A stretch of 49,442 nt of DNA from a virus (Duplodnaviria > Heunggongvirae > Uroviricota > Caudoviricetes), in IMG/VR virus record IMGVR_UViG_2537561691_000009; one strand, written 5' to 3'. Numbering within the stretch: the stretch's first letter is position 1; each line of letters starts with the position of its first letter. The translations under genes were made by a program, and so were the position numbers. This document shows positions 1 to 49,442 of this stretch, piece by piece. The notes under the pieces were generated by a model. The model saw nothing but the letters and a program-made list of their open reading frames with translations, made no database searches and was not told the DNA's origin.

Positions 1-28
1 CAGTGTGGTACATGGATATCGATACCAC
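1..28. repeat. attL: attL core: 28-bp direct repeat identical to 49415..49442
   Basis: Exact 28-nt identity between the first and last 28 nt of the window (cagtgtggtacatggatatcgataccac); integrase gene lies immediately inside. Confidence 0.8.
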
Positions 29-164: not shown

Positions 165-1295
165 TCAAATGACCAGTTTTTTCCATTCCTTACCGCGTGC
201 GTCGTTGTAAATATCGGTCATTTTTTGATTCGAATGGCCTAGCAAAATTTTGGTATCAACCCCCTGCTCTCTGAACAATCGCTCTGATAAAGATCTCTGC
301 TCATGGAAAGAGGGTGGGGTGCCATTAGCACGCCAGTTGTAATCCACAGAATCCCGGGCTTTTTTAAATGCAACGGTTAATGTTGCTGGCTTAACCATCC
401 CGCCGCGCTTAGCTGTCCCTTTCGCGTGATGGTGGTGCAATAGCCACGGACTAAGAACGCAATCGCGGCAGGATGACACTACATCATCCAGGGTGAGATT
501 TAATTTATCGCAACGCAGAGCCAGAGGGATGGCAATCCGGGTTCCTGTTTTTTGCTGTTCGACATGAAGATAACCATCCCGGATATCCGAAAATTGCATT
601 TTGCAAATATCTGAAAGGCGCTGGCCTGTCATCAGTGCCAGCAGCATACCGCGCTGTAAAAAGTAACCATCCTTTTCCGCTGCGTTATAAATCATCATCC
701 ACTCATCAAAAGTCAGTCGCTGTCTTGATATCCGCACCTGCGGTTTTTTTGCCGATTCTGCAGGGTTAAAGCCTGGCGGGACATCGCCCGTTTGCTGAGC
801 TTCCCGGAAAACATCGATCAGTACTTTCCTGAAAATTTGTCCCATTCTGTTATGTCCTCTGGCCTTGTACTCTTCCAGTACTGATACCACATCTTTTACG
901 GTTATGGCATCTAACGGTCTGGTGCCAAAACGTTCATCAAATACCCTGAGAGGGGCCGCTTTCTGTTTCAGCGTGTTGAGTTTGATCTCGCCGTTTTCAT
1001 ATCTTTCCTGTTGAATTTTTCTGTAATTATTCAGAAAAATGGTAACGGTTGATGAACCGCCGGTATCACTAATAATTTTCTCCTGCAGACTGAGCATTTG
1101 TTCCATTTGCTGCCGGGCAAGACGGCTGTTCGCTTCTGCTGCAATAGTTTCTGCCAGTTTCTGGTCAATACTGCCGAGACCGTGATTTTTGCCTGTTATG
1201 GGATGCCTGTAACGCCAGTAAACTTTGTTATTTCTTTTGTCAAAATACGGAGATAATCCCGGAACATCGGTTTTATATTTTCGCGGGCGCGCCAT
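165..1295 (-). CDS. int: Tyrosine site-specific integrase
   Basis: 376-aa ORF next to attL; C-terminal LGHS...MT..Y tyrosine-recombinase motif; phage-integrase-like N-terminus. Confidence 0.92.
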   Translation of the reverse strand: MARPRKYKTDVPGLSPYFDKRNNKVYWRYRHPITGKNHGLGSIDQKLAETIAAEANSRLARQQMEQMLSLQEKIISDTGGSSTVTIFLNNYRKIQQERYENGEIKLNTLKQKAAPLRVFDERFGTRPLDAITVKDVVSVLEEYKARGHNRMGQIFRKVLIDVFREAQQTGDVPPGFNPAESAKKPQVRISRQRLTFDEWMMIYNAAEKDGYFLQRGMLLALMTGQRLSDICKMQFSDIRDGYLHVEQQKTGTRIAIPLALRCDKLNLTLDDVVSSCRDCVLSPWLLHHHHAKGTAKRGGMVKPATLTVAFKKARDSVDYNWRANGTPPSFHEQRSLSERLFREQGVDTKILLGHSNQKMTDIYNDARGKEWKKLVI

Positions 1296-1585: not shown

Positions 1586-4057
1586 TTAAAAATCAGCCTG
1601 ATTCGGGATCAGTTTTTGCCAGATAACTGAAACGTATTTTGCCTGGTAACGGGCGTCATCAAGTGCATTATGGCGCTCACCTTCGAATGGAATAGCCGTT
1701 CTGGCATCGAAGTCTATGGCTTTCCCCAGCTCAACGATTGTGCGTACATCGCGATCGTTGTAGTAACGCCATGGGCAGGGGATCCCCTGCCGTTCGTATG
1801 AACGGCGCAAAATCGTGTTGTCGAAGTTGGCTCCATTTCCCCAGACCTGAACAAAAAATTCGCCGGAGTTTTCGTCGATAAATTCCCGCAATTGCAGCAG
1901 TGCATCATCTAACGGGATTTCATCGGTCAGAATGGCAGATTGCGCCTCCCGTGATTGCTTAAGCCACCATTTAATGGTGCCACGATCAATGACTCCGCCA
2001 GCAGTATCCATATCGATGGTCTTACTAAATTCCGGCCCCATATCTCCGGTTTGCGGATCGAAAAATATTGCACCTATTGAGATAAGCGGGGCATCGGGAT
2101 TTTTTCCCATGGTTTCAAGGTTGATCATCATGTGGTGCCACATTCTGCTGGTGGATGTGATAACGGGATGACCGTTCATCGCAATTAAGGGATCTGCCGT
2201 CTCGCCAGTTTCACTATCGCTGGCGTGATCCTGAGCGCTACCAGCATTCTCCTTGTGTGGATGTTCAGCGCCTTCCATTTCCTTCGGATCATTTTCCTGA
2301 ACTTCAACCTGATTCTCTTCATCGAATGTTTCCTGGTATGTTGCGTCGCCCATTACCGCGCCACAATCAGGGCAGTTGCCACCACCGCTTTGACCGCAGG
2401 CGGTGCAGACTTTTTCCGGTTCCTGTTGCGCTACTGGCTCAGGTTGTTTCGTTTCTGGCTCGTTTTGTAACGCATTTGGGCTGTTTTGTTCCGCTTTCTG
2501 GCCGTTCTGTTCCGTTTCTTGTTGGTTCTGATTCACTGAATCGCGGGTTTCAATCCCCTTCACCCATTTCGGATCATTCGGGTCGCTAATCCCTGCAACA
2601 AATTCACCACGTGATACAGCAAGCAACTTATTGGCGTCAGGCTGGCTGATATTGGCTGCCTGCATAATTTTGTTTACTTCGTCAGCGGTAACTTTTACCG
2701 GCTCTGGTTGTGCGATCGTGTCAGATGCACCAGTATTTTGTTGTGAACCTGAGTATGTACTGTTTTTGCGGGCGAAATATTCTTCTTTCGTGATTTCAGT
2801 AGCCCCGGCAGCCAGCGCCTTATCCAGACCAGAAAGTTTGTTTGCGCGACCGTATTTTTCGCCATCCTTGTCGGTGAAGAGGAAGTAGAACGGCCCTTCA
2901 CGCTCTACAGATGGTTCGACTTCCACTTTGCATTCGGTTTTTTCGTTGTCCGGAATTGCCGTTTCCACTGCATCAGTTTCTGGTACTGGCGACGAGAGAG
3001 TATCAGTTGCGCTCTGATTTCTTCCTTCATCTTCAAACACGCCCTTTGTAGTCAGGTATTCAGTAATGTATTTGTTCAGTGCCACAGGGTCTTTGTGAAT
3101 GTCGATCGGACGTTCACGGACAAGGCCAAAAATAGTCTGGCGGTCGTAGCGAAGGGCATCAGGCTGTTTGCGCATTGATGCCGAGATACGCTTCCAGTCT
3201 TCGCGGTCGTTGTCGATAACTTCATTTTTTGCCCAGCGATGGATGCTGCCGTCAATGTTTCCGGCATCCACATCACCAGGCCAGAGAGCGTAGGCCAGTT
3301 CGTCATCCAGTGTTTTCCATGTCTGCTTGTATTCGCGATGAATGGCAGCAATGACCGGGCTGATTTTTCCTGTTGAATTTTCACTGTGCTGTTGATTGGT
3401 TCTGGCGCGGGCGAGATCAACAACAGACGTGTATTTTCCGGTTTCCTTGCGTTCACCTTCGCGACGTTTTTTCCAGATGCGCATCTCTGCCTGAATTTCG
3501 GGCCATTTGGCACCAGGCTTACATTTATGCTTAACCCACCCGATGGCATGCAGCTTAAGCTCCGGATACATGGCGTTAACTTCTGGCATTTTCATCAACG
3601 CTTCAACGATATGTCCGTCGAATGTTGCCATGTCTTCCTGCAACAATTCCTGTGCGCTAATAACCATATCAACGGTGATGTTTTCACATGTGTCGAACTT
3701 AACCATGACAGCGTTCTGTACTTCAGGGGACAGCTTGTCAAAATTGACGTTCATCGGATCGGATTCTGGTTCGACCGGAATAAAGGAAGCGGATTCCTCA
3801 TCCCAGCGGTTTTCCTGCATATATTCAGCATCCCAGGAATCGAGGGCAGGGCGGGGTATACCGGGTTTATCCTCGCAGACAAGAAATTTATAAGCGCAGT
3901 CCTGAGCAGCCGGATAATGTTCCAGGAATTGCCAGTGAAATTTTGCGCGGGCGCGACGTTCATCACCGGCTTCAATGGCAGTGGCTACAGCGACGGCACC
4001 TTCTTCCTTTATTGCCTGTTCGTCCGGAATGGCGGCGCAAATAAAGACTTTACTCAT
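1586..4057 (-). CDS. Prophage exonuclease (exodeoxyribonuclease VIII-like) with C-terminal DnaQ/DEDD-type 3'-5' exonuclease domain and internal Cys4 zinc ribbon
   Basis: 823-aa ORF; C-terminal HNALDDA-type exonuclease motif; CTACG...CPDCG zinc-ribbon; early-left operon position. Confidence 0.75.
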   Translation of the reverse strand: MSKVFICAAIPDEQAIKEEGAVAVATAIEAGDERRARAKFHWQFLEHYPAAQDCAYKFLVCEDKPGIPRPALDSWDAEYMQENRWDEESASFIPVEPESDPMNVNFDKLSPEVQNAVMVKFDTCENITVDMVISAQELLQEDMATFDGHIVEALMKMPEVNAMYPELKLHAIGWVKHKCKPGAKWPEIQAEMRIWKKRREGERKETGKYTSVVDLARARTNQQHSENSTGKISPVIAAIHREYKQTWKTLDDELAYALWPGDVDAGNIDGSIHRWAKNEVIDNDREDWKRISASMRKQPDALRYDRQTIFGLVRERPIDIHKDPVALNKYITEYLTTKGVFEDEGRNQSATDTLSSPVPETDAVETAIPDNEKTECKVEVEPSVEREGPFYFLFTDKDGEKYGRANKLSGLDKALAAGATEITKEEYFARKNSTYSGSQQNTGASDTIAQPEPVKVTADEVNKIMQAANISQPDANKLLAVSRGEFVAGISDPNDPKWVKGIETRDSVNQNQQETEQNGQKAEQNSPNALQNEPETKQPEPVAQQEPEKVCTACGQSGGGNCPDCGAVMGDATYQETFDEENQVEVQENDPKEMEGAEHPHKENAGSAQDHASDSETGETADPLIAMNGHPVITSTSRMWHHMMINLETMGKNPDAPLISIGAIFFDPQTGDMGPEFSKTIDMDTAGGVIDRGTIKWWLKQSREAQSAILTDEIPLDDALLQLREFIDENSGEFFVQVWGNGANFDNTILRRSYERQGIPCPWRYYNDRDVRTIVELGKAIDFDARTAIPFEGERHNALDDARYQAKYVSVIWQKLIPNQADF

Positions 4058-4152
4058 TTTGTTTTAACCTCATTACAGATTTCAGGGTGAACGAATCCCT
4101 GCCATTGCTGGCATTTTTAATCCGTTGGTATGGCGTTAATATGGCTGGGGGG

Positions 4153-4341
4153 TTATCCAGCCGGGATTTCGTTATTCAGGTTCAGCGATACTTTTTTTAA
4201 CGGGAGGCATTCACCGGGGATTTTTTGTTCGTCCCTTACCTGAATGCAGGATGACTTACTGTCATAAATTCCGGTAATCACATTTTGTGGCTCACCCGTT
4301 ATAAGAAAAACGGTCATCACCAGTGCAAATGCTGAAGTCAC
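4153..4341 (-). CDS. Hypothetical small protein with hydrophobic N-terminus
   Basis: 62-aa ORF; ATGA overlap with upstream ORF suggests coupling. Confidence 0.4.
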   Translation of the reverse strand: MTSAFALVMTVFLITGEPQNVITGIYDSKSSCIQVRDEQKIPGECLPLKKVSLNLNNEIPAG

Positions 4342-15524: not shown

Positions 15525-16574
15525 ATGGCTAATACTGTAAAAATATCCAGTTGTGAGTTAATCAACGCTGATTGCCTGGAATTTATCCAGACCTTACCGG
15601 AAAACTCTGTCGATCTTATAGTCACAGACCCGCCATACTTTAAAGTGAAACCCGAGGGCTGGGATAACCAGTGGAAGGGCGACGATGATTACCTGAAGTG
15701 GCTGGACCAGTGTCTGGCGCAGTTCTGGCGGGTGCTGAAACCTGTCGGAAGTCTTTACCTGTTCTGTGGTCATCGCCTGGCATCTGATATCGAAATCATG
15801 ATGCGTGAACGCTTCAGTGTGCTGAACCATATTATCTGGGCGAAGCCGTCCGGACGCTGGAACGGATGCAACAAGGAAAGCCTGCGGGCGTATTCCCCCG
15901 CCACAGAGCGCATTCTGTTCGCGGAACATTATCAGGGGCCGTATCGTCCGAAAGATGCCGGGTATGCGGCGAAGGGCAGTGCACTGAAACAGCATGTGAT
16001 GGCCCCGCTGATTTCTTACTTTCGTGATGCGCGCGCGGCCCTGGGGATAACGGCAAAACAGATTGCAGATGCCACAGGAAAGAAAAACATGGTGTCGCAC
16101 TGGTTCAGTGCCAGTCAGTGGCAGCTACCGAACGAAAGCGATTATCTGAAATTACAGTCGCTGTTTGCCCGGGTGGCAGAAGAGAAACATCAGCGCGGTG
16201 AACTGGAAAAGCCCCACCACCAGCTGGTGGATACGTATACGTCACTGAACCGGCAGTATGTGGAGCTGCAGAGTGAATATAAGCATCTGCGGCGGTATTT
16301 TGGTGTGACGGCGCAGGTGCCGTACACGGATGTGTGGACACATAAACCGGTGCAGTTCTATCCCGGGAAACATCCGTGCGAAAAACCGGCAGAAATGCTG
16401 CAGCAGATAATCAGCGCAAGCAGTCGTCCGGGAGACCTGGTTGCAGATTTTTTTATGGGCTCAGGTTCAACGGTAAAAGCTGCACTGGCGCTCGGGCGTC
16501 GTGCGATTGGCGTTGAACTGGAGACCGGACGTTTTGAGCAGACAGTCAGGGAAGTTCAGGATTTAATCGTTTGA
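15525..16574 (+). CDS. DNA N6-adenine methyltransferase (DPPY motif)
   Basis: 349-aa ORF with VTDPPYF catalytic motif near N-terminus and SAM-binding-like region near C-terminus; no adjacent restriction endonuclease evident. Confidence 0.85.
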   Translation: MANTVKISSCELINADCLEFIQTLPENSVDLIVTDPPYFKVKPEGWDNQWKGDDDYLKWLDQCLAQFWRVLKPVGSLYLFCGHRLASDIEIMMRERFSVLNHIIWAKPSGRWNGCNKESLRAYSPATERILFAEHYQGPYRPKDAGYAAKGSALKQHVMAPLISYFRDARAALGITAKQIADATGKKNMVSHWFSASQWQLPNESDYLKLQSLFARVAEEKHQRGELEKPHHQLVDTYTSLNRQYVELQSEYKHLRRYFGVTAQVPYTDVWTHKPVQFYPGKHPCEKPAEMLQQIISASSRPGDLVADFFMGSGSTVKAALALGRRAIGVELETGRFEQTVREVQDLIV

Positions 16575-17745: not shown

Positions 17746-19614
17746 ATGGTGGAAAGAACCATGGCATTTAAACACTATGATGTTGTCAGGGCGGCGTCGC
17801 CGTCAGATCTTGCGGAAAAGCTGACACATAAACTGAAAGAGGGCTGGCAGCCGTTTGGTAGTCCGGTGGCCATAACCCCTTATACCCTGATGCAGGCGAT
17901 TGCAGCAGAAGGTGATGTGGTCGTCAGTGGTGCAACTGAGCCGGAGTGGTACTACGTCATCGTACTGGCCGGGCAATCCAATGCCATGGCTTACGGTGAA
18001 GGGCTTCCGCTTCCGGATTCTTACGATGCGCCCCACCCACGCATTAAGCAACTGGCCCGTCGCAACACAGTGACTCCCGGTGGTAAAGCATGCGCATTTA
18101 ACGACATCATTCCGGCAGACCACTGCCTGCATGATGTTCAGGATATGAGCGCACTGAATCATCCGAAGGCAGACCTGAGCAAAGGGCAGTACGGCTGTGT
18201 CGGCCAGGGCTTACATATTGCCAAAAAACTGCTTCCGTATATCCCGAATAACGCGGGGATCCTGCTGGTACCATGCTGTCGTGGTGGTTCGGCATTCACC
18301 CAGGGCGCGGAGGGGACATTCAGTGCGGACACGGGGGCCAGCCAGGATTCGGCACGCTGGGGTGTGGGTAAACCGTTATATCAGGACCTGATCGCACGCA
18401 CCAAAGCGGCATTACAGAAGAACCCGAAAAATGTGTTGCTGGCGGTGTGCTGGATGCAGGGCGAATTTGACATGAGCGCTGCCACCTACGCACAGCAACC
18501 GGACCTGTTCACGGCCATGCTGAAGCAGTTCCGTACTGACCTTTCCGGATTTAACGCGCAGTGCCATGGCGGCAGTGCTGCAGTTGTACCGTGGATTTGT
18601 GGCGACACGACGTATTACTGGAAAAACACATACGGCACACAGTATGACTCCGTCTACGGCGCATACAAAAACAGGGAGAGCGACAACGTTTTCTTTGTGC
18701 CGTTCATGACCGACGGTAACGGCAACAACACGCCCACCAACTTACCGGCAGAAGACCCGGATATTGCTGATGCAGGTTATTACGGCGCGCAATCCCGTAG
18801 TAATGGTAATTGGGTATCGTCAAACCGCCCGACACATTTCAGTTCATGGGCGCGCAGGAGCATTATTCCGGATCGTATGGCAACCGCTATTCTGAACGCA
18901 GCCGGGCGCACCTCAGCCTTCATCAGTGGTAAGGCACCGGAAATCAAACCCTCGCCCGGCGTCGACACGCCATCGGGGCCGTCTGAAGATGCATCCGTAC
19001 GCACAATCTCCCTGTTGCCGACAGCCGGAGAGGCTGCTGCGCAGGGCTGGACCATTAAGGACGGCGGAATTCAGTTGTCGGGTGGTGTATTTAAGATCAC
19101 CAAGCAGAGCAATAAAACTTGGTCCCTGATGCATCCGGTGGATGACGCAGTCTCCCTGCTGACACGGGGTGGCAGACTGAGCTGTAAGTTTCGACTGTCA
19201 GGCGCACTGACCAACAACCAGTTCGGTCTGGGAATTTATCTGTATACCGATGTAGCGTTACCTGACGTCGTGGCGATGACCGGGACTGGTAACCCGTTCC
19301 TGATGTCGTTCTTCACCCAGACCACAGACGGCAAACTGAATCTGATGCATCACAGGAAAGCAGGAAACACAAAGTTGGGCGAGTTCGGGAATTACAGTAA
19401 CGACTGGCAGACGCTGGAGCTGGTGTTCACCGCCGGCAGTGCCACGGTTACTCCGAAACTGAATGGAGTGGCTGGCCCGGCATTCCAGGTCATAAAAGAC
19501 AGTCTGACACTGGGGCTGAATGCGCTGACGCTGACGGATATTACCAAAAATGCAGCGTATGGCGTTGAGATAGAAAGTCTGGTGCTGGAGATAAATGCAC
19601 CAGCATCATCATAA
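17746..19614 (+). CDS. nanS-p: Prophage sialate O-acetylesterase-like protein (NanS-p-like; SGNH/DUF303-type with GQSN motif)
   Basis: 622-aa ORF with GQSNA esterase motif; same position downstream of the tRNA genes as nanS-p in Stx-type lambdoid phages. Confidence 0.75.
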   Translation: MVERTMAFKHYDVVRAASPSDLAEKLTHKLKEGWQPFGSPVAITPYTLMQAIAAEGDVVVSGATEPEWYYVIVLAGQSNAMAYGEGLPLPDSYDAPHPRIKQLARRNTVTPGGKACAFNDIIPADHCLHDVQDMSALNHPKADLSKGQYGCVGQGLHIAKKLLPYIPNNAGILLVPCCRGGSAFTQGAEGTFSADTGASQDSARWGVGKPLYQDLIARTKAALQKNPKNVLLAVCWMQGEFDMSAATYAQQPDLFTAMLKQFRTDLSGFNAQCHGGSAAVVPWICGDTTYYWKNTYGTQYDSVYGAYKNRESDNVFFVPFMTDGNGNNTPTNLPAEDPDIADAGYYGAQSRSNGNWVSSNRPTHFSSWARRSIIPDRMATAILNAAGRTSAFISGKAPEIKPSPGVDTPSGPSEDASVRTISLLPTAGEAAAQGWTIKDGGIQLSGGVFKITKQSNKTWSLMHPVDDAVSLLTRGGRLSCKFRLSGALTNNQFGLGIYLYTDVALPDVVAMTGTGNPFLMSFFTQTTDGKLNLMHHRKAGNTKLGEFGNYSNDWQTLELVFTAGSATVTPKLNGVAGPAFQVIKDSLTLGLNALTLTDITKNAAYGVEIESLVLEINAPASS

Positions 19615-22962: not shown

Positions 22963-24862
22963 TGCAGCCGGTGCGATAGCAACAGGGCTTTTATCTCTCA
23001 TTATTCCTGTTCCACTGACGACAGTTCAGTGGGCCAATAAACATTATTACCTTCCTAAAGAGTCGTCTTATACCCCGGGGCGGTGGGAAACACTGCCGTT
23101 TCAGGTTGGCATCATGAACTGTATGGGCAACGATTTGATTCGCACTGTTAACCTGATTAAATCTGCCCGTGTTGGTTATACAAAGATGTTGCTGGGAGTG
23201 GAGGCTTATTTTATTGAGCATAAATCACGCAACAGCCTTCTTTTTCAGCCCACGGACTCAGCTGCTGAAGATTTTATGAAATCTCATGTTGAGCCAACGA
23301 TAAGGGAGGTTCCTGCGTTGCTGGAGCTGGCTCCATGGTTCGGAAGAAAACACCGCGATAATACGCTCACCCTGAAGCGTTTTTCCTCCGGTGTGGGTTT
23401 CTGGTGTCTGGGGGGAGCGGCAGCAAAAAACTACCGTGAAAAATCCGTGGATGTGGTCTGTTATGACGAGCTTTCCTCGTTCGAACCGGATGTTGAAAAA
23501 GAGGGTTCGCCAACCCTGCTGGGGGATAAACGTATTGAGGGCTCTGTATGGCCCAAATCCATTCGCGGCTCGACTCCTAAAATCAAAGGCTCCTGCCAGA
23601 TCGAAAAAGCCGCTAACGAGTCGGCACACTTCATGCGTTTTTATGTGCCCTGTCCGCACTGTGGGGAGGAGCAGTATCTGAAATTTGGCGATGAGTCCAC
23701 GCCTTTTGGGCTTAAATGGGAGAAGGACAGCCCCGAAAGCGTTTTCTACCTCTGTGAGCATCATGGCTGCGTGATCCATCAGTCTGAACTGGACCAGAGT
23801 AACGGGCGGTGGATCTGTGAAAACACGGGCATGTGGACCCGTGACGGCCTGACGTTTTTCAGCGCTGCGGGTAATGAAATTCCGCCGCCGCGCTCCATCA
23901 CTTTCCATATCTGGACGGCGTACAGTCCGTTCACCACCTGGGTACAGATTGTCTATGACTGGCTGGATGCACTGAAAGATCCCAACGGCCTGAAAACCTT
24001 TGTGAACACCACGCTGGGCGAGACCTGGGAAGAGGCTGTGGGCGAAAAAATCGATCACCAGGTACTGATGGATAAGGTTGTGCGTTACACGGCGGCGGTG
24101 CCTGCCCGGGTGGTTTATCTGACGGCGGGCATTGACTCGCAGCGAAACCGTTTTGAGATGTATGTCTGGGGATGGGCTCCGGGAGAGGAAGCCTTTCTGG
24201 TGGATAAAATCATCATTATGGGGCGTCCCGATGAGGAAGAGACGCTGTTACGTGTGGATGCGGCGATCAACAAAAAATACCGCCATGCAGACGGAACCGA
24301 AATGACTATTTCCCGTGTCTGCTGGGACATCGGGGGGATCGATGGCGAAATCGTTTATCAGAGGTCAAAAAAACACGGTGTTTTCCGGGTGCTGCCGGTA
24401 AAAGGCGCATCTGTCTATGGCAAGCCGGTGATCACCATGCCAAAAACCCGCAATCAGCGGGGCGTGTATCTGTGTGAAGTGGGGACGGACACCGCAAAAG
24501 AAATTCTCTATGCCCGTATGAAAGCCGATCCCACGCCTGTGGATGAAGCCACGTCGTATGCCATCCGTTTTCCTGATGATCCGGAGATTTTTTCGCAGAC
24601 AGAGGCGCAGCAACTGGTCGCGGAAGAGCTTGTGGAGAAGTGGGAAAAAGGAAAGATGCGTCTGCTGTGGGATAACAAAAAGCGGCGTAACGAAGCGCTG
24701 GACTGCCTGGTGTATGCCTACGCGGCATTACGTGTGTCCGTGCAACGCTGGCAGCTTGATCTGGCTGTACTGGCAAAATCCCGGGAAGAAGAGACGACCC
24801 GGCCAACCCTTAAAGAACTGGCAGCGAAGCTGTCCGGAGGAGTGAATGGTTACAGTCGCTGA
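22934..24862 (+). CDS. A: Terminase large subunit A
   Basis: 642 aa from MISDAQ start; lambda gpA-like throughout including [14 protein letters not shown]. Confidence 0.93.
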
Positions 24863-42415: not shown

Positions 42416-45322
42416 ATGACAGTAAAAATTTCTGGCGTGCTTAAAGATGGCACAGGAAAACCAGTACAGAACTGCACCATTGTGCTGAAGGCCAGACGAA
42501 CCAGCAGCACGGTGGTGGTGAACACGGTGGCCTCTGAAAATCCGGATGAAGCCGGACGTTACAGCATGGATGTTGAGCATGGTCAGTACAGCGTCACCCT
42601 GCTGGTTGAAGGTTTTCCGCCTTCACATGCCGGGACCATTACCGTCTATGAAGGTTCCAGACCAGGTACGCTGAATGATTTTCTCGGTGCCATGACGGAG
42701 GATGATGTCCGACCGGAGGCACTGCGCCGCTTTGAGCAGATGGTGGAAGAGGTGTCACGTAACGCCTCCGCGGTTGCACAGAATACGGCAGCCGCGAAAA
42801 AATCAGCCAGCGATGCCAGTGCATCAGCCAGCGAGGCGGCAACTCATGCAACCGATGCTGCAGCCTCAGCACGTGCCGCCAGCACGTCAGCCGGACAGGC
42901 CGCGTCGTCGGCTCAGTCAGCGTCTTCCAGCGCAGGAACGGCATCGACAAAGGCCCGTGAAGCAGCAAAAAGTGCTGCTGCTGCAGAGTCATCAAAAAGC
43001 GCGGCAGCTACCAGCGCCAGTGCCGCGAAAACGTCAGAAACGAATGCCGCAGCATCACAAAAATCGGCAGCCACTTCTGCATCCACAGCGACCACGAAGG
43101 CGTCAGAAGCTGCCACCTCGGCACGGGGTGCGGCGGCCTCAAAAGAGGCAGCGAAATCATCAGAAACGAACGCATCATCAAGCGCCAGTAGTGCCGCTTC
43201 CTCGGCAACGGCGGCAGGCAATTCCGCGAAGGCGGCAAAGACGTCTGAGACAAACGCCAGGTCTTCTGAAACGGCAGCGGGACAGAGCGCCTCGGCTGCG
43301 GCAGGCTCAAAAACAGCGGCTGCGTCGTCTGCCAGTGCCGCGTCAACAAGTGCCGGGCAGGCCTCAGCCAGTGCCACCGCCGCCGGAAAATCGGCAGAAA
43401 GCGCCGCATCATCCGCTTCAACAGCCACAACGAAGGCTGGCAAAGCCACTGAGCAAGCCACTGCAGCAGCGAGGTCTGCTTCTGCAGCAAAAACCTCTGA
43501 AACAAATGCAAAGACTTCAGCAGACAATGCTGCTTCCTCTAAGGCGGCAGCCGCATCGTCAGCCAGTTCAGCGGCGTCATCGGCATCATCTGCGTCTGCT
43601 TCAAAAGATGAGGCGACCAGACAAGCGTCAGCAGCGAAAGGTAGTGCCACGACAGCAACAATGAAAGCATCAGAGGCAGCTGGTAGTGTGACGGCGGCAG
43701 CTCAGAGCAAAAGTACGGCGGAATCCGCGGCAACGCGCGCCGAGACAGCAGCAAAACGGGCAGAGGATATTGCATCCGCCGTGGCGCTGGAGGATGCGAG
43801 CACGACGAAAAAGGGGATAGTACAGCTCAGCAGTGCGACCAACAGCACTTCCGAGTCACTGGCGGCAACGCCAAAAGCGGTTAAGGCGGTAATGGGTGAA
43901 ACGAACAAGAAAGCGCCCTTAAATAGTCCTGCACTGACCGGAACGCCAACAACACCAACTGCGCGACAGGGAACGAATAATACCCAAATCGCAAGCACGG
44001 CTTATGTTATGGCTGCGATCGCTGCCCTCGTGGACTCGTCGCCTGACGCACTGAATACGCTGAACGAGCTGGCTGCGGCGTTGGGCAACGACCCGAATTT
44101 TGCGACCACCATGACTAACGCGCTTGCGGGTAAGCAACCGAAAGATGCCACCCTGACGGCGCTGGCCGGGCTTGCTACTGCGGCAGACAGGTTTCCGTAT
44201 TTTACGGGGAATGATGTTGCCAGTCTGGCAACCCTGACAAAAGTTGGGCGGGATATTCTTGCGAAATCGACCGTTGCCGCCGTTATCGAATACCTCGGTT
44301 TACAGGAAACGGTAAACAAGGCTGGTAACGCCGTTCAGCGTTCCGGCGATAAAATGACCGGAGAACTGAAAATTGGCACGGTGAATGCGCTGCGAATTTT
44401 CAATGATGCCTTCGGTCTTATTTTCCGTCGTTCAGAAGATTTTCTTCATTTCATTCCGACGGCTGAAGGACAAGGCGAAAACGGTGATATAGGCCCATTA
44501 AGGCCATTCGCTATAAATCTGAGAACAGGTGCTATATCTGTCAGCCACGGGGCCAAAATTGATGGTGGGCTGGCGCTTGGTACAGATAACGCACTGGGCG
44601 GTAATTCCATTACTCTCGGAGATAACGACACTGGTATTAAACAGGGCGGCGACGGTGTCCTTTTATTCTATTCAAATGGACAACTGGCATTTGGACTTCA
44701 ACCCGCATCTGCTGATTTTTATAAGCGGGTTGCATATATTCATCAGGGAATAATTCCTGATGGAAGTGGCGCATTTGCAGACCAGTTGAATAATGCCACC
44801 GCGCCTTTTGTTCAGACGCAGTTTGCCTGGAATCCCACTCCTGGTGGTCATTACGTGCCGATAGTTAAGGGCTTGTCCATTCGCAATGGACAGGGCTATC
44901 CCGGCGCGGTCAGCTTTGGGTATTTACTGACAGAACAGTATGGATTTCCGGTTCCATGTATTCATATGCGTGGCGATGGCGGTAATGATGCTTTATGGCA
45001 GTTTAACCCGAACGATAAATCCTTTATTTCACCGGGTGCTCTTATTGCGGGTGGCGTCCGTTATAACACCGATGGAAATATATTTGGTGGGTGCTGGGGT
45101 TCAAACTTAAATGATTACCTGAATAGTTCTTTTATCAGAAATGTGCGTCTGGGAGGCAGACGTTCTGACACATTATATCGCGGAGGACTTTGCGAACCAG
45201 GTAATGGTCATGTGACAACAGGATTGCAAATTATTGGTGAGGTTGATGGAGATGACTGGATGGTGTCACGACCACTACAAAAATACATTTCTGGTAACTG
45301 GTATAACGTTGAACAGGCATAG
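42416..45322 (+). CDS. stf: Side tail fibre protein Stf (constant N-terminal part, Ala/Ser-rich repeat region, variable C-terminus inside invertible segment)
   Basis: 968 aa; long A/S/T-rich low-complexity core; gix-like crossover site inside at 44283..44310. Confidence 0.88.
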   Translation: MTVKISGVLKDGTGKPVQNCTIVLKARRTSSTVVVNTVASENPDEAGRYSMDVEHGQYSVTLLVEGFPPSHAGTITVYEGSRPGTLNDFLGAMTEDDVRPEALRRFEQMVEEVSRNASAVAQNTAAAKKSASDASASASEAATHATDAAASARAASTSAGQAASSAQSASSSAGTASTKAREAAKSAAAAESSKSAAATSASAAKTSETNAAASQKSAATSASTATTKASEAATSARGAAASKEAAKSSETNASSSASSAASSATAAGNSAKAAKTSETNARSSETAAGQSASAAAGSKTAAASSASAASTSAGQASASATAAGKSAESAASSASTATTKAGKATEQATAAARSASAAKTSETNAKTSADNAASSKAAAASSASSAASSASSASASKDEATRQASAAKGSATTATMKASEAAGSVTAAAQSKSTAESAATRAETAAKRAEDIASAVALEDASTTKKGIVQLSSATNSTSESLAATPKAVKAVMGETNKKAPLNSPALTGTPTTPTARQGTNNTQIASTAYVMAAIAALVDSSPDALNTLNELAAALGNDPNFATTMTNALAGKQPKDATLTALAGLATAADRFPYFTGNDVASLATLTKVGRDILAKSTVAAVIEYLGLQETVNKAGNAVQRSGDKMTGELKIGTVNALRIFNDAFGLIFRRSEDFLHFIPTAEGQGENGDIGPLRPFAINLRTGAISVSHGAKIDGGLALGTDNALGGNSITLGDNDTGIKQGGDGVLLFYSNGQLAFGLQPASADFYKRVAYIHQGIIPDGSGAFADQLNNATAPFVQTQFAWNPTPGGHYVPIVKGLSIRNGQGYPGAVSFGYLLTEQYGFPVPCIHMRGDGGNDALWQFNPNDKSFISPGALIAGGVRYNTDGNIFGGCWGSNLNDYLNSSFIRNVRLGGRRSDTLYRGGLCEPGNGHVTTGLQIIGEVDGDDWMVSRPLQKYISGNWYNVEQA
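44283..44310. promoter_or_regulatory. Left crossover site (gix/hix-like) of invertible tail-fibre segment
   Basis: ttatcgaatacctcggtttacaggaaac; inverted copy at 47364..47389 (22 of 26 positions match). Confidence 0.7.
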
Positions 45323-45337
45323 CCATCAGGAGAATAT

Positions 45338-45865
45338 ATGCAACATCTGAAAAATATTACCGCCGGAAACCCCAAAACCATTGAGCAGTATCAGCTTACG
45401 AAAAAAGCTGGCGTTATCTGGCTATATACAGAAGACGGTAAAAACTGGTATGACGAATTAAAAAACTTTCAGGATGATACTTTAAAAATAGCTTATGACC
45501 AGAAGGGGATTATTCGTTGTATTGAGAAAGACGTATCAACACTTAACCCTGACGGGTTAAGTGTTGTTGAGTTACCGAATATAACAGCCAACCGTCGCGC
45601 CGATATCTCGGGAAACTGGAAGTTTCTGGATGGTAAAGTAGTAAAGCGGGAATATACAAAACAGGAACTGCAACAGCAGGCAGAGTTACAAAAAGCCGCT
45701 TTGCTTTCCGAAGCGGAGTCTGTGATTCAACCGCTGGAACGTGCTGTCAGACTGAATATGGCAACTGATGAGGAACGCACACGACTGGAATCATGGGAAC
45801 GCTACAGCGTTATGGTCAGCCGTGTGGATACTGCAAAGCCTGAATGGCCACAGAAACCAGAATAA
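45338..45865 (+). CDS. tfa: Tail fibre assembly protein Tfa
   Basis: 175 aa directly after stf. Confidence 0.85.
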
Positions 45866-45874
45866 CAACAAATT

Positions 45875-45894
45875 AAGGCCCGTACGGGCCTTTT
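45875..45894. terminator. Bidirectional terminator hairpin between convergent tfa genes
   Basis: aaggcccgtacgggcctttt. Confidence 0.6.
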
Positions 45895-45895
45895 C

Positions 45896-46429
45896 TTATT
45901 CTGGTGGTTCCGGGAATGTTACAGGAAGAACCGAGGTATCAGTTGTCTCAACCTGTTGCACGTATCGCATCCAGTTCATCAGTTGCTGTCTGTCTGAATC
46001 AGTGATAATCCCCAAAGTAAGCTGTGTTTGCCAGAACTGCGTTTTTTCTCTGGCCTGCTGTAATAATATTTTTTTCTGGTTTTCCGTCTGTAGGCGCAAC
46101 TCTTCTTCGGTATATACACGTTTAATGACTGCGCCATCTTTAAACATCCATTTACCTGAGTCGTCAGCACGCCGGTTGGCGGTAATATCAGGAATCTCAA
46201 CGACGCTATAACCTTCAGGGTTAAGTGTGGAGGCATCTTTGGTTATGGCAACAATAATATTATTTTCATCGTAAACAATCTTTATGGTGTCTGGCTGAAA
46301 GTTTTTCACTTCCTCATACCAGTTTTTTTCGTCCTCAGAGTAAAGCCAGATAACTCCGTGTTTCTTTGTTAACTCATACTGTTCCAGTGTTTTAGCATTA
46401 CCCGCTTTTATGTTCTTTAAGTGCATCAT
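45896..46429 (-). CDS. Alternative tail fibre assembly protein Tfa'
   Basis: 177-aa ORF resembling tfa at 45338..45865 in reading and layout, inverse orientation. Confidence 0.8.
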
Positions 46430-46430
46430 A

Positions 46431-47381
46431 TTAAACGCTCGCTACATTATACCAGGTGCCATTTATATACTTTTGAACGGGTCTGTAATAAACGCCCGCT
46501 ATATTATCGGCAGAGTTAGACCCTGTATCCTGAACATTAATACCAGACAATACATGACCTGAAGGGCACCGGAAATACCATGTTTGCCAGTTGTTCACTC
46601 CATAATATTGCTGTGAACCAAGTCGAACATCTTTCACATAACGGGAATCAAAGTTACCGTAATCCGAGGGGTTAACACGCCCTGTAATATTTATGGTTTT
46701 ATTACTTTGAATGCTTCCGGAGACAAAGCGCATAACATGGACGTTATTAGCATAAACATCCAGATTACCATCGCCATTTTGTTTAAAGCCCGTGTCATTA
46801 TCACCCAATACAATCGAATTACCGCCAAGAGCACTGGATGTTCCGATACCCAGTGTACCATTCAGTTGACCACCAGATAACGGCAGTGCACCAACATCTC
46901 CTGCTGAAGGTTTTCTGGTGGTGGTGTAAAATTCGGACCAGTCGGCTTCAAAACCATAACCATCACGGGCTGAACGATAAAAAACACCGCCATTTTTATA
47001 ATTAATCCGAAACTGAGCTGCAGGACAACTTCCTTCTCCCATATAAAAATGAATAATTAACGTTGATGCACCACTAATAGTTGCGTTATAGGCTCCGCTA
47101 CTCCAGTTCCATCCAACTGCTTTATCATTCGCAACGGTGCTTCCTGTTTTCCCTAAGGCAAACGCACCAACATGACTTGCTTTTAATGTGATATCGGAGG
47201 AACCATCAAAAGCCACATTGCTTATTTTCCTGGCAGTTTTTAATTTTGCAGCTGTAGAAGCATTGCCGGATAGTTCACCAGAAAGGCCACCGCTGAATGT
47301 TTGTCGATTAGTCCAGGTATTCGCTGTACTGAGTAACGGTATTTTCTCCCCGCTTGTGCCGAGTTCTCGTAAACCGAGGTT
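46431..47381 (-). CDS. Alternative Stf C-terminal segment (no independent start; joined to stf constant part upon inversion)
   Basis: Minus-strand frame open from the right crossover site to 46431; shares LGGNSI.LGDNDTG.KQ and RP.QKYI.G.WYNV motifs with the stf C-terminus. Confidence 0.75.
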
Positions 47382-47389
47382 TTAGATAA
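47364..47389. promoter_or_regulatory. Right crossover site (gix/hix-like, inverted)
   Basis: ttctcgtaaaccgaggttttagataa, inverted copy of the site at 44283..44310. Confidence 0.7.
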
Positions 47390-47443
47390 TGGCGGTTTCT
47401 GGCCTGTATGGCATGATTTGTGCTTTTGGACGGGAGATTCAGC

Positions 47444-47680
47444 GTGCTGATTGGCTATGTAAGGGTATCAACAAATGACCAGAATACAGATCTGCAACGA
47501 AACGCTCTTGTTTGTGCAGGATATGAACAAATATTTGAAGATAAATTAAGCGGAACAAGGACAGGCCGACCTGGATTAAAACGTGCTTTAAAGCGCCTTC
47601 AAAAAGGTGACGCACTGGTTGTCTGAAAACTGGACTGACTGGTTCACTGTATGCGGCATCTTGTCGTGCTGGTGGTGGAA
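47444..47680 (+). pseudogene. pin: Decayed Pin/Gin/Hin-family serine DNA invertase (nonsense codons and 3' truncation)
   Basis: N-terminus MLIGYVRVSTNDQNTDLQRNALVCAG... is invertase-like but an in-frame TGA follows GDALVV, a second stop follows in the KLD...L.VHCMRHL remnant, and the gene ends at a tfa 3' repeat. Confidence 0.75.
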
Positions 47681-47819
47681 GCCTGGAAAAAGTATCGGGT
47701 GTTGCTGAACCGTGTTGATACATCAACTGCACCTGATATTGAGTGGCCTACGAACCCTGTCAGGGAGTAATCATTGGGATTATGCCGCAGCACGTCTTAA
47801 GCAAGAACGTGCTGCGGTT
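47678..47819. repeat. Direct repeat copy 1 (tfa 3' end fragment plus terminator hairpin)
   Basis: About 142 bp with only scattered mismatches relative to 48727..48869, including an identical 39-bp core. Confidence 0.8.
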
Positions 47820-47824
47820 GGATG

Positions 47825-48493
47825 CTATTTTTTCCCTGAAGCGGAAAACATTACTACAGTACCTTGAACCTTGGTTTTAACATTCTCGAAATGCTCTGAG
47901 AGTATATGTGTTAAGCCTTCTTCGGAATCTTTTGTGTTTGAAAAGATGCCTTTCTGATTGTAAATGCGCATCAGTTTTTGACCGAAGCTATTGTGCACAA
48001 CTCCATCGCCAAGAATTGTGGCTCCGTATAGAGTTCCATCGTCAGTTAAGGCCTGCGCCGCATTGCGTATTACACAGCTTTTTGTAGATATATTTCCAGG
48101 CAGGCAGTGAAGAAGGTAAAACATGGAAATGGAATCAAATTGACCATGTAACGCCGCGGGATAAGGTTCAAAAACATCATGGCTAATTTTATGTTTAATT
48201 TTTGATTCCCCAGCCCTTGTAGATGCCGCGTTCAGGCTAGCTTCGTTCAAATCCATTAAAGATATCAGACTACTCTCAGGTACGTGAGTAAGGTAAAACC
48301 CAGTTCCAACACCAATATCCAGATGGTTGTTACCTACATGTTCCAGAAAGTGTGGAAGAAGGTGTTCCTTTGTAGGACATCCCCATGCAAGCCGATTTGA
48401 TACTCCCAAAACCCACCAGTCATAAAGCTTTAGGGTAAGTGGTGTGTAAATTTTAGCACCATCATCTGTGTTTTTTTTCATTGATTTCACCAT
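47825..48493 (-). CDS. Class I SAM-dependent methyltransferase-like protein (cargo/moron)
   Basis: 222 aa with LDIGVGTG SAM-binding motif; AT-rich; bracketed by tfa 3' direct repeats. Confidence 0.7.
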   Translation of the reverse strand: MVKSMKKNTDDGAKIYTPLTLKLYDWWVLGVSNRLAWGCPTKEHLLPHFLEHVGNNHLDIGVGTGFYLTHVPESSLISLMDLNEASLNAASTRAGESKIKHKISHDVFEPYPAALHGQFDSISMFYLLHCLPGNISTKSCVIRNAAQALTDDGTLYGATILGDGVVHNSFGQKLMRIYNQKGIFSNTKDSEEGLTHILSEHFENVKTKVQGTVVMFSASGKK

Positions 48494-48549
48494 GTTATAG
48501 TTTTATTTGTGAATTAAATCAATTATGGCGATGAATTACAAGGGGTTAA

Positions 48550-48819
48550 ATGCTGCCGCAGCATAGCGATATTGAAATAGCCTGGTATGCTTCGATACAG
48601 CAGGAGCCGAATGGCTGGAAGACCGTCACCACACAGTTCTACATCCAGGAATTCAGTGAGTATATTGCGCCACTGCAGGATGCTGTAGATCTGGAAATCG
48701 CAACGGAGGAAGAAAGATCGTTGCTGGAGGCATGGAATAAATATCGGGTATTGTTGAATCGTGTTGATACATCAACTGCACCTGATATTGAGTGGCCTGC
48801 AAATCCTGTCAGGGAGTAA
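48550..48819 (+). CDS. Tfa-like C-terminal domain protein, 89 aa (short tail fibre assembly homolog)
   Basis: C-terminus resembles the tfa C-terminus (EER..LE.W..Y...RVDT...EWP); ends in repeat copy 2. Confidence 0.55.
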
Positions 48820-48869
48820 TCATTGGGATTATGCCGCAGACACGTCGTATGCAGGAACGTGCTGCGGTT
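48727..48869. repeat. Direct repeat copy 2 (tfa-like 3' end plus hairpin)
   Basis: Matches 47678..47819. Confidence 0.8.
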
Positions 48870-49104
48870 AGTTTGTGAGCTTTCGATAGTGGTTGTTATT
48901 TTTGCCCTTATTTGTTCCGGAGGCCATGGTTCAATGGTCCGTCTGCCCCCTGTGGTGATGTCAGCAAAATCAGCCACTGCGCGAACCACAATAGCCCGGG
49001 AAGATGCTGAAGATCACCAGGTAAAGCTATCAGCGCAGAAACTGGAAGAACTGCTCGCATCAATGGTTAAGGATGAGGTTGATCGCAATGATGGGATTTA
49101 TTGA
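48823..49104 (+). CDS. Hypothetical protein (start uncertain)
   Basis: 93-aa ORF; hydrophobic then charged segment. Confidence 0.3.
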   Translation: MGLCRRHVVCRNVLRLVCELSIVVVIFALICSGGHGSMVRLPPVVMSAKSATARTTIAREDAEDHQVKLSAQKLEELLASMVKDEVDRNDGIY

Positions 49105-49414
49105 CGTCAGCGAGAGCAGAAGGAAGAACTGAATAACCTGAATGATTTACGCTCAATCAGAGCGATGATGATTGGCAGTAATTAGCGGTCAATTTCGGTT
49201 TTTTTGGCTGTGCGCTCCCCGCCCAGCATTGCGCGTCAATTAGCCCCAAAAAAACGAAAAAGTTACAATCAAGTAAAAAATTCCTTCTGCAAAACTAAAA
49301 AAGATTTCAATAAAATCAGACAGTTAAAAACATAAAAAAAAGGTACAAAAAAACATCTCAAAGTCTTGTTTTTTGCTTCAAATACAATTGGTTATTGTGT
49401 TTTTTGAAACCTAC

Positions 49415-49442
49415 CAGTGTGGTACATGGATATCGATACCAC
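49415..49442. repeat. attR: attR core: 28-bp direct repeat identical to 1..28
   Basis: Exact identity with 1..28; preceded by AT-rich arm-like region 49105..49414. Confidence 0.8.

Follow-up and report, generated by a model that had tools for sequence, protein, structure and literature searches.

A ybcY-family methyltransferase gene between duplicated tfa ends as probable optional cargo of a lambdoid prophage in ompW

The stretch of DNA analyzed here (the window; 49,442 nt, IMG/VR virus record IMGVR_UViG_2537561691_000009) is one complete lambdoid prophage, attL to attR, integrated in ompW. Near its right end, a minus-strand gene for an S-adenosylmethionine (SAM)-dependent methyltransferase lies between two copies of the 3' end of tfa, next to a truncated serine invertase. 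An earlier note on this DNA, made without database searches, proposed that one recombination between tfa 3' homologies had both deleted the 3' part of the invertase and captured the methyltransferase. We consider a different account likely, namely that the gene is ybcY, a cargo gene (moron) of a cassette that already existed in Escherichia coli, that the invertase was joined to this cassette separately, and that the enzyme acts on a small molecule or lipid. The features that carry this account are as follows.

47673..47679: novel joint of invertase and tfa, where homology to pinE ends (47679) and homology to tfa starts (47673), with ~4-7 nt of overlap
47673..47819, plus strand: repeat copy 1, holding the last 30 lambda-type tfa codons (47678-47767), the stop codon (47768-47770), and a hairpin (47785-47817)
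47825..48481, minus strand: predicted ybcY-family class I SAM-dependent methyltransferase, 218 amino acids (aa) from Met5; the longest open reading frame (ORF; 222 aa) extends to 48493
48494..48522, minus strand: predicted sigma-70 promoter of ybcY, TTGATT-17 nt-TATAAC, read from the sequence
48550..48819, plus strand: tfaX-like ORF of 89 aa, with 31 N-terminal residues unrelated to tfa followed by the last ~58 tfa residues
48643..48869, plus strand: repeat copy 2 at its full extent against intact tfa (227 nt), of which 48722-48869 pairs with copy 1; hairpin at 48834-48867

The methyltransferase gene had been picked out by its position between the repeat copies and by the motif LDIGVGTG, and it is indeed intact, with Pfam methyltransferase domains above cut-off. 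It had also been called AT-rich; its guanine-plus-cytosine content is lower than that of its flanks (41-43% versus 44-49%), but the difference is mild. The product matches a protein cluster of 6589 member sequences at 100% identity, and the gene is annotated as WP_000240999.1 in a 99.7%-identical region of strain AR_0069 (RefSeq). PHROG 2132 (unknown function) matches with an E-value of 4.2e-157, residues 5-222 aligning with positions 1-218 of the 218 in the profile. YbcY is the name of the corresponding gene in the annotation of phage PhiR26_1. By this full-length match and by its position on the opposite strand, with a tfa 3' end on one side and a tfaX-type fragment on the other, the gene is assigned to ybcY.

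The real start is probably Met5 (48481), because the -10 hexamer abuts the first ATG of the longest ORF. The alignment of homologues and PHROG 2132 both begin at Met5, and a GGTGA Shine-Dalgarno-like sequence lies 5 nt upstream. The hexamers and spacing of the predicted promoter are identical in sequence to those of the K-12 ybcY promoter, which a genomic SELEX (systematic evolution of ligands by exponential enrichment) study lists in the ybcY<>tfaX spacer and flags as H-NS bound (PMC3946193). Transcription of the gene would start at its own sigma-70 promoter and run opposite to the late operon, and it would probably be damped by H-NS. Searches of the literature found no functional study of ybcY, nothing relevant on tfaX or tfaD, and nothing on morons and methyltransferases.

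The direct repeat of roughly 142 bp described earlier (47678..47819 and 48727..48869) is real and extends 5 nt further to the left, position 47678 being the start of the first full tfa codon. It consists of two blocks, 47673-47790/48722-48839 (118 nt, 91% identical) and 47791-47819/48841-48869 (29 nt, 90%), separated by a 1-nt indel. In a global alignment of the copies (147 nt and 148 nt), 133 of the 148 columns are identical (89.9%). The BLAST E-value of the repeat is 1.5e-51, and therefore it is not due to chance. Copy 1 is 99.4% identical to the 3' end of PhiR26_1 tfa, and copy 2 is 89.9% identical to nt 409-634 of the same gene. Where phages keep tfa intact, the duplication spans 227 nt and covers the last ~58 tfa codons, the stop codon, and the hairpin (tfa nt 409-634); the invertase joint leaves 147 nt of it as copy 1 of the window.

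The hairpin of copy 1 is predicted to fold at -29.3 kcal/mol on the plus strand (z -3.0; minus strand, z -4.4), and the hairpin of copy 2 is the same structure with a bulge. On the minus strand the copy-1 hairpin lies 5 nt beyond the methyltransferase stop codon, with no T-run after it on that strand, and it was not called by a consensus terminator scan. When the hairpin was searched for as a dispersed repeat, only the two tfa-linked copies were found within the window. In the b region of lambda (J02459, about 24161-24202), a second copy of the tfa-downstream hairpin (86% identical) lies ~1.6 kb downstream of tfa. The tfa-downstream hairpin may be a small repeated boundary element.

Comparison with related elements places the cassette before the invertase joint. 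Window positions 47673-48774 align colinearly, at 97-99.5% identity, to K-12 DLP12 tfaD-ybcY-tfaX and to phages PhiR26_1, 2G7b, and ev243, and homology to every ybcY-bearing element begins exactly at 47673. Against K-12 DLP12 (tfaD, ybcY pseudogene, tfaX), identity is 97.2% over 47673-48796. PhiR26_1 has an intact tfa-ybcY-tfaX that is 99.5% identical to the window over 1102 nt, and it has no invertase. The sister prophages of B-1109 and TW14425 share the same ompW attR and carry, in order, a fibre gene, an intact 194-aa tfa, ybcY, the window-type tfaX-like ORF, the DUF4376 fragment, and attR. Starting at 47673, the match to the window reaches 49442 in B-1109 (99.6% identity) and 49182 in TW14425 (99.4%), after which TW14425 has a Rha/ash insert. 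Counts of window-type copy 2 across genomes were blurred (BLAST joined pieces of copy 1), and individual loci were inspected instead. The cassette thus appears to predate the joint, because these sister prophages carry the right arm from 47673 behind an intact tfa and because the ybcY cassette occurs in elements with an intact tfa and no invertase. The bracketing repeat is, by this comparison, a standing feature of the ybcY cassette, and the layout in the window appears to be the standard one.

Copy 1 abuts the truncated pin remnant, as had been noticed. The joint reads ...GTGCTGGTGGTGGA followed directly by AGCCTGG..., and it is present in 536 of the 5426 complete E. coli genomes searched. 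The joint is illegitimate rather than a crossover in tfa homology, because the shared homology amounts to only ~4-7 nt. In avian E. coli STE15 (locus 3920-4306), a partial invertase remnant and a tfa end lie beside a transposase fragment, and an ORF overlapping them is annotated as an EAST1-family enterotoxin, an odd secondary context of the joint.

We propose that the right arm (47673-49442) was a pre-existing unit, widespread in E. coli, made up of the tfa 3' end with its hairpin, ybcY, the tfaX-like ORF, a fibre fragment, and attR. Illegitimate recombination at 47673-47679 would have fused a P2/Mu-like invertible fibre module to the tfa 3' end, with loss of the 3' part of the invertase and of the first ~164 tfa codons. 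In the simplest history, the module would have replaced the fibre end of a lambdoid prophage that already carried ybcY downstream of tfa. The single recombination of the earlier note, with invertase deletion and gene capture at once, has in its favor that the repeat is real, that copy 1 starts at the invertase joint, and that the match to DLP12-type phages ends at 48774, inside copy 2. It follows that crossing over within the 3' ends of tfa does take place in this family of genes. We nevertheless regard that model as very improbable, since ybcY is flanked by the same repeats in phages and prophages with an intact tfa and no invertase, prophages at the same chromosomal site have the right arm up to attR following an intact tfa, and only ~4-7 nt are common to the two sides of the joint. 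A second history would make the module and invertase resident and the DLP12-like tfa-ybcY-tfaX segment incoming, through an illegitimate crossover between invertase and tfa and a homologous one near 48774, in what was left of a resident tfa 3' end, so that the segment brought ybcY into the lineage. The 97-99.5% identity of 47673-48774 to DLP12-type elements, ending inside copy 2, is consistent with this, and DLP12-like elements in most E. coli are potential donors. The sister ompW prophages, however, have the window-type copy 2 and the identical right end behind an intact tfa, and the tfaX-like ORF of the window type matches, over its full length, a separate PHROG family. It is simpler to take the DLP12-type tfaX as the derived deletion and the right arm as ancestral, and an incoming segment is accordingly judged rather unlikely. 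In either order of events, the tfa partner already had ybcY behind it.

Several points weigh against our preferred account of a ybcY moron in a pre-existing cassette. Which of the two parts was incoming, module or cassette, cannot be proved from extant sequences. Termination at the hairpins is assumed, as they have no canonical adjacent T-run. Because the K-12 copy of ybcY is a pseudogene, the gene is not needed in the laboratory. Binding of H-NS may also keep it largely silent.

Morons are a concept that reportedly goes back to Hendrix and colleagues, with bor and lom as the lambda examples. The gene ybcY is present in 3825 of the 5426 genomes (70%), with up to 4 copies per genome. A single copy of the homologous tfa 3' end and hairpin, and no ybcY, is found in lambda, HK629/630, mEp460, Ayreon, and PhiR49_2. 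Comparative genomics thus bore out the expectation of a variable insert rather than a conserved core component, ybcY being absent from lambda and other relatives with a single tfa end. We classify ybcY from these comparisons as an optional cargo gene, because it occurs in 70% of E. coli genomes and is absent from those relatives. Two features of a moron were found, namely presence or absence at the same position and a predicted promoter of its own, the latter by sequence identity with the K-12 promoter.

A SAM-binding fold had been expected from structure prediction, and a Rossmann methyltransferase fold was found. The AlphaFold (AF2) model of YbcY has a mean predicted local distance difference test (pLDDT) of 90.3 and a predicted template modelling score (pTM) of 0.86, and it is a single-domain Rossmann methyltransferase with two N-terminal helices. 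Its alternating beta/alpha fold with a seven-strand sheet resembles solved class I methyltransferases. YbcY scores above the Pfam cut-offs (in parentheses) for Methyltransf_12 with 37.5 bits (30), Methyltransf_23 with 29 (27), and Methyltransf_25 with 27.7 (27), and it is also above threshold for Methyltransf_11. In 30 homologues, D59, G61, G63, and G65 of motif I are invariant, as are the ribose-binding D81, H105-D106, D120-S121, and the LLHCLPG segment. The model and these matches place YbcY, by fold and sequence, among the class I SAM-dependent methyltransferases.

A structure search had been suggested as a way to assign the subfamily, and it led to a generic small-molecule/lipid methyltransferase type; no specific subfamily was reached, NCBIfam matches being below cut-offs. 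The best Foldseek match is the phosphatidylethanolamine (PE) N-methyltransferase PmtA (PDB 8ys9; E-value 3e-11, template modelling score 0.61-0.67). The top Foldseek and profile matches are mostly small-molecule or lipid enzymes (PmtA, JHAMT, PfPMT, NodS, UbiG, CysG/BelI), with a few RNA enzymes slightly lower in score. Against the PmtA equivalog NF045882, YbcY scores 15.7 bits with a cut-off of 390, and weak matches occur in just 7 of 101 family members. No functional NCBIfam match was found for YbcY or the 101 family members, with BioC, CpaM, UbiE, NodS, RquA, and PmtA far below cut-offs. Sequence searches of the PDB with YbcY and with a 101-sequence profile gave weak generic matches only, the best being NodS (E-value 1e-6). 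Source names in the clusters of distant homologues are all generic. In Salmonella, Yersinia, and Aeromonas, homologues stand alone, their surroundings are unrelated, and no partner gene is conserved.

With moderate confidence, the model points to a small molecule or lipid as the substrate of YbcY rather than RNA or protein. In the lysogen, the enzyme would methylate a metabolite or membrane-associated small molecule and not phage or host DNA. A methyltransferase for RNA (transfer or ribosomal) or protein seems unlikely, given that most top Foldseek and profile matches are small-molecule or lipid enzymes and that the 218-aa single-domain protein has no RNA-binding extension. One distant homologue is fused to a cytochrome P450, which also speaks against RNA or protein, and another is fused to RCC1; these fusions are suggestive only. 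Orphan DNA methylases are frequent in phages, and the earlier note had kept that option open. The translation of YbcY has no (D/N/S)PP(Y/F/W) or PC motif, however, and YbcY has no DNA methylase family match in Pfam or NCBIfam and no DNA methylase among its listed structural neighbours. PADLOC gave no defence-system match for YbcY, only a sub-threshold one. The prophage also already encodes an N6_N4 methylase: an early-region ORF (15525-16574, plus strand, 349 aa) matches PF01555 with an E-value of 3.6e-45 as an N6/N4-type DNA methylase. YbcY is very probably not a DNA methylase, and it is exceedingly improbable that it shields phage or host DNA from restriction.

Standalone YbcY homologues occur across Enterobacterales, Aeromonas, and Shewanella. 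A more speculative idea, which we think improbable, is that YbcY is the first representative of a very common and uncharacterised family of methyltransferases carried by prophages, and that it might be a lysogenic-conversion enzyme acting on a membrane lipid or quinone. If so, it could for example carry out a PmtA-like N-methylation of phosphatidylethanolamine and alter the envelope of the host together with lom, bor, and ompT nearby.

The 3' end of tfa is found in 4758 of the 5426 genomes (88%), at up to 9 places per genome. Copies of tfa truncated at the 5' side start, relative to an intact tfa, at four points, each behind a different upstream sequence:

tfa nt 409: all tfaX-type copies
tfa nt 440: Ayreon
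tfa nt 466: 2G7b, ev243, and PhiR49_2
tfa nt 488: this window

Because the truncation points vary and each has different sequence upstream, the conserved tfa 3' end (the last 100-230 nt) appears to be a recurrent boundary for the exchange of tail-fibre modules and downstream cargo. Such a boundary fits the classical modular view of lambdoid phage evolution. The tfa 3' end and its hairpin may even be kept for a function, as a recombination linker, terminator, or small RNA, rather than as debris. Its presence in 88% of genomes, the four independent 5' truncations, and the overlap with matches to the Rfam families IS009 and CssrB are offered as the basis for this suggestion, which we rate below that of a lysogenic-conversion family.

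The tfaX-like ORF matches Caudo_TAP with an E-value of 6e-25 at residues 31-86 (the C-terminal half of Caudo_TAP) and PHROG 2341 over its full length with an E-value of 4e-61. It may be more than debris, because the whole 89-aa ORF corresponds to this conserved PHROG. Its first ~31 residues (48550-48642) match PHROG 3893 (unknown function). The Rfam family IS009 (RF02111) matches at 48573-48776 with 112.5 bits, below the threshold of 117, and weakly at copy 1 (47648-47727, plus strand; 47.5 bits). The model of the Shigella small RNA CssrB weakly matches the copy-1 hairpin region (47754-47816; 32.6 bits with a threshold of 76). Both Rfam families seem to be modelled on prophage sequence derived from tfa. 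The match between the window and DLP12-type tfaX ends inside copy 2 at a further deletion in the DLP12-type copies.

The left part of the joint belongs to an invertible tail-fibre module with the following features.

44277..44308: left inverted repeat (gix/pix-like crossover site), 32 nt, inside stf, 84% complementary to 47364-47395
45338..45865, plus strand: tfa of the invertible segment in the expressed orientation, 175 aa, Caudo_TAP E-value 9e-35
45896..46429, minus strand: alternative tfa of the invertible segment, 177 aa, Caudo_TAP E-value 6e-32
46431..47216, minus strand: alternative tail-fibre C-terminal part, promoterless in this orientation, with gp37_C and gp37_trimer matches
47364..47395: right inverted repeat (crossover site), sequence TTCTCGTAAACCGAGGTTTTAGATAA...
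47444..47679, plus strand: truncated serine invertase (pin/gin-type) remnant, ~78 codons, GTG start at 47444, stop-containing

RefSeq annotates 46431..47216 as a partial tail fiber protein. The invertase remnant matches the Resolvase N-terminal domain (E-value 4.6e-15), and its first in-frame stop is TGA at 47624-47626. It is 74% identical to pinE and, over its first ~190 nt, ~96% identical to the intact 199-aa invertase of a P2-like prophage. The whole module (44277-47679) is ~96% identical to that of a P2-like myovirus prophage of E. coli C7, which has the intact 199-aa invertase. This similarity clearly points to the exchange of a tail-fibre module between unrelated types of phage. As in the Din family, inverted crossover sites surround alternative fibre/tfa sets; an intact cis invertase (~185-200 aa) is missing. 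The invertible segment has the opposite orientation in strain 24AR0357, and across the right crossover site ~376 genomes match the window orientation, compared with the 536 genomes that have the joint. Both orientations occur among genomes that share the same truncated, stop-containing invertase remnant, and therefore inversion would be driven in trans by the invertase of another prophage.

The remaining features concern the ends of the prophage and its other genes.

165-1295, minus strand: lambda-type integrase gene
48916..49185, plus strand: DUF4376-type tail-fibre gene fragment (pseudogene), from the RefSeq annotation of the 99.7%-identical strain AR_0069
49415..49442: attR core, inside ompW, identical to window positions 1-28

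The ends of the window, 1-28 (attL) and 49415-49442, share an exact 28-nt match, CAGTGTGGTACATGGATATCGATACCAC. Beyond the right end, matching E. coli genomes continue with an ompW fragment, yciE, and the trp operon. The ORF at 48823-49104 matches PHROG 7703 and PHROG 1141. Some sister prophages have a Rha-family regulator and an ash-family gene in addition, between the DUF4376 fragment and attR (window 49182-49268), and this insertion site makes a second slot for variable cargo at the right end of the prophage. Upstream of the lysis genes, an ORF at 17746-19614 (plus strand, 622 aa) encodes a SASA-family carbohydrate esterase with DUF1737, SASA, and DUF6645 domains.

Annotations of E. coli K-12 and of thousands of other genomes already contain ybcY and its neighbours in this order. 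What changes is the reading of the locus: the methyltransferase would not have been captured by the event that broke the invertase, it is most probably not a DNA methylase, and the repeat appears to belong to the cassette itself. The gene is one of the cargo genes most widely distributed among E. coli prophages.

Known systems provide several comparisons. PmtA (8ys9) and other small-molecule class I methyltransferases likewise have a single-domain Rossmann fold of ~210 aa. The lambdoid morons bor and lom are, like ybcY, optional, absent in close relatives, and read against the late genes, and they share with it a promoter of their own (predicted for ybcY), lower GC content, and flanking hairpins. 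They differ in that bor and lom encode envelope proteins with known phenotypes, whereas YbcY is a cytoplasmic-type methyltransferase without a known phenotype. The invertible module shares with the Din-family switches (Mu G/Gin, P1 C/Cin, e14 P/Pin) the 32-nt gix-like inverted repeats, two tfa genes, two fibre ends, and an invertase gene directly to the right, but the invertase of the window ends at about codon 78 and carries stops.

The closest counterpart is K-12 DLP12 tfaD-ybcY-tfaX (b0561-b0563), which has the same gene order, orientation, and ybcY promoter hexamers. The K-12 copy of ybcY, however, is a pseudogene disrupted by a frameshift, whereas that of the window is intact. Most of tfa is still present in tfaD, while the upstream tfa of the window retains 30 codons fused to the invertase remnant, and the tfa C-terminus and hairpin, which are missing from tfaX, are both present in copy 2 with its full tfa 3' end. 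The active lambdoid phages PhiR26_1, 2G7b, and ev243 (Nesevirus) have the same succession of tfa end, ybcY, and tfaX beyond their side tail-fibre genes (98.8-99.5% identical). In these phages an alpha/beta hydrolase gene, ompT, and int come next, whereas the window continues to attR. In 2G7b and ev243, another fibre cassette is joined at tfa nt 466, while the joint in the window is at 488.

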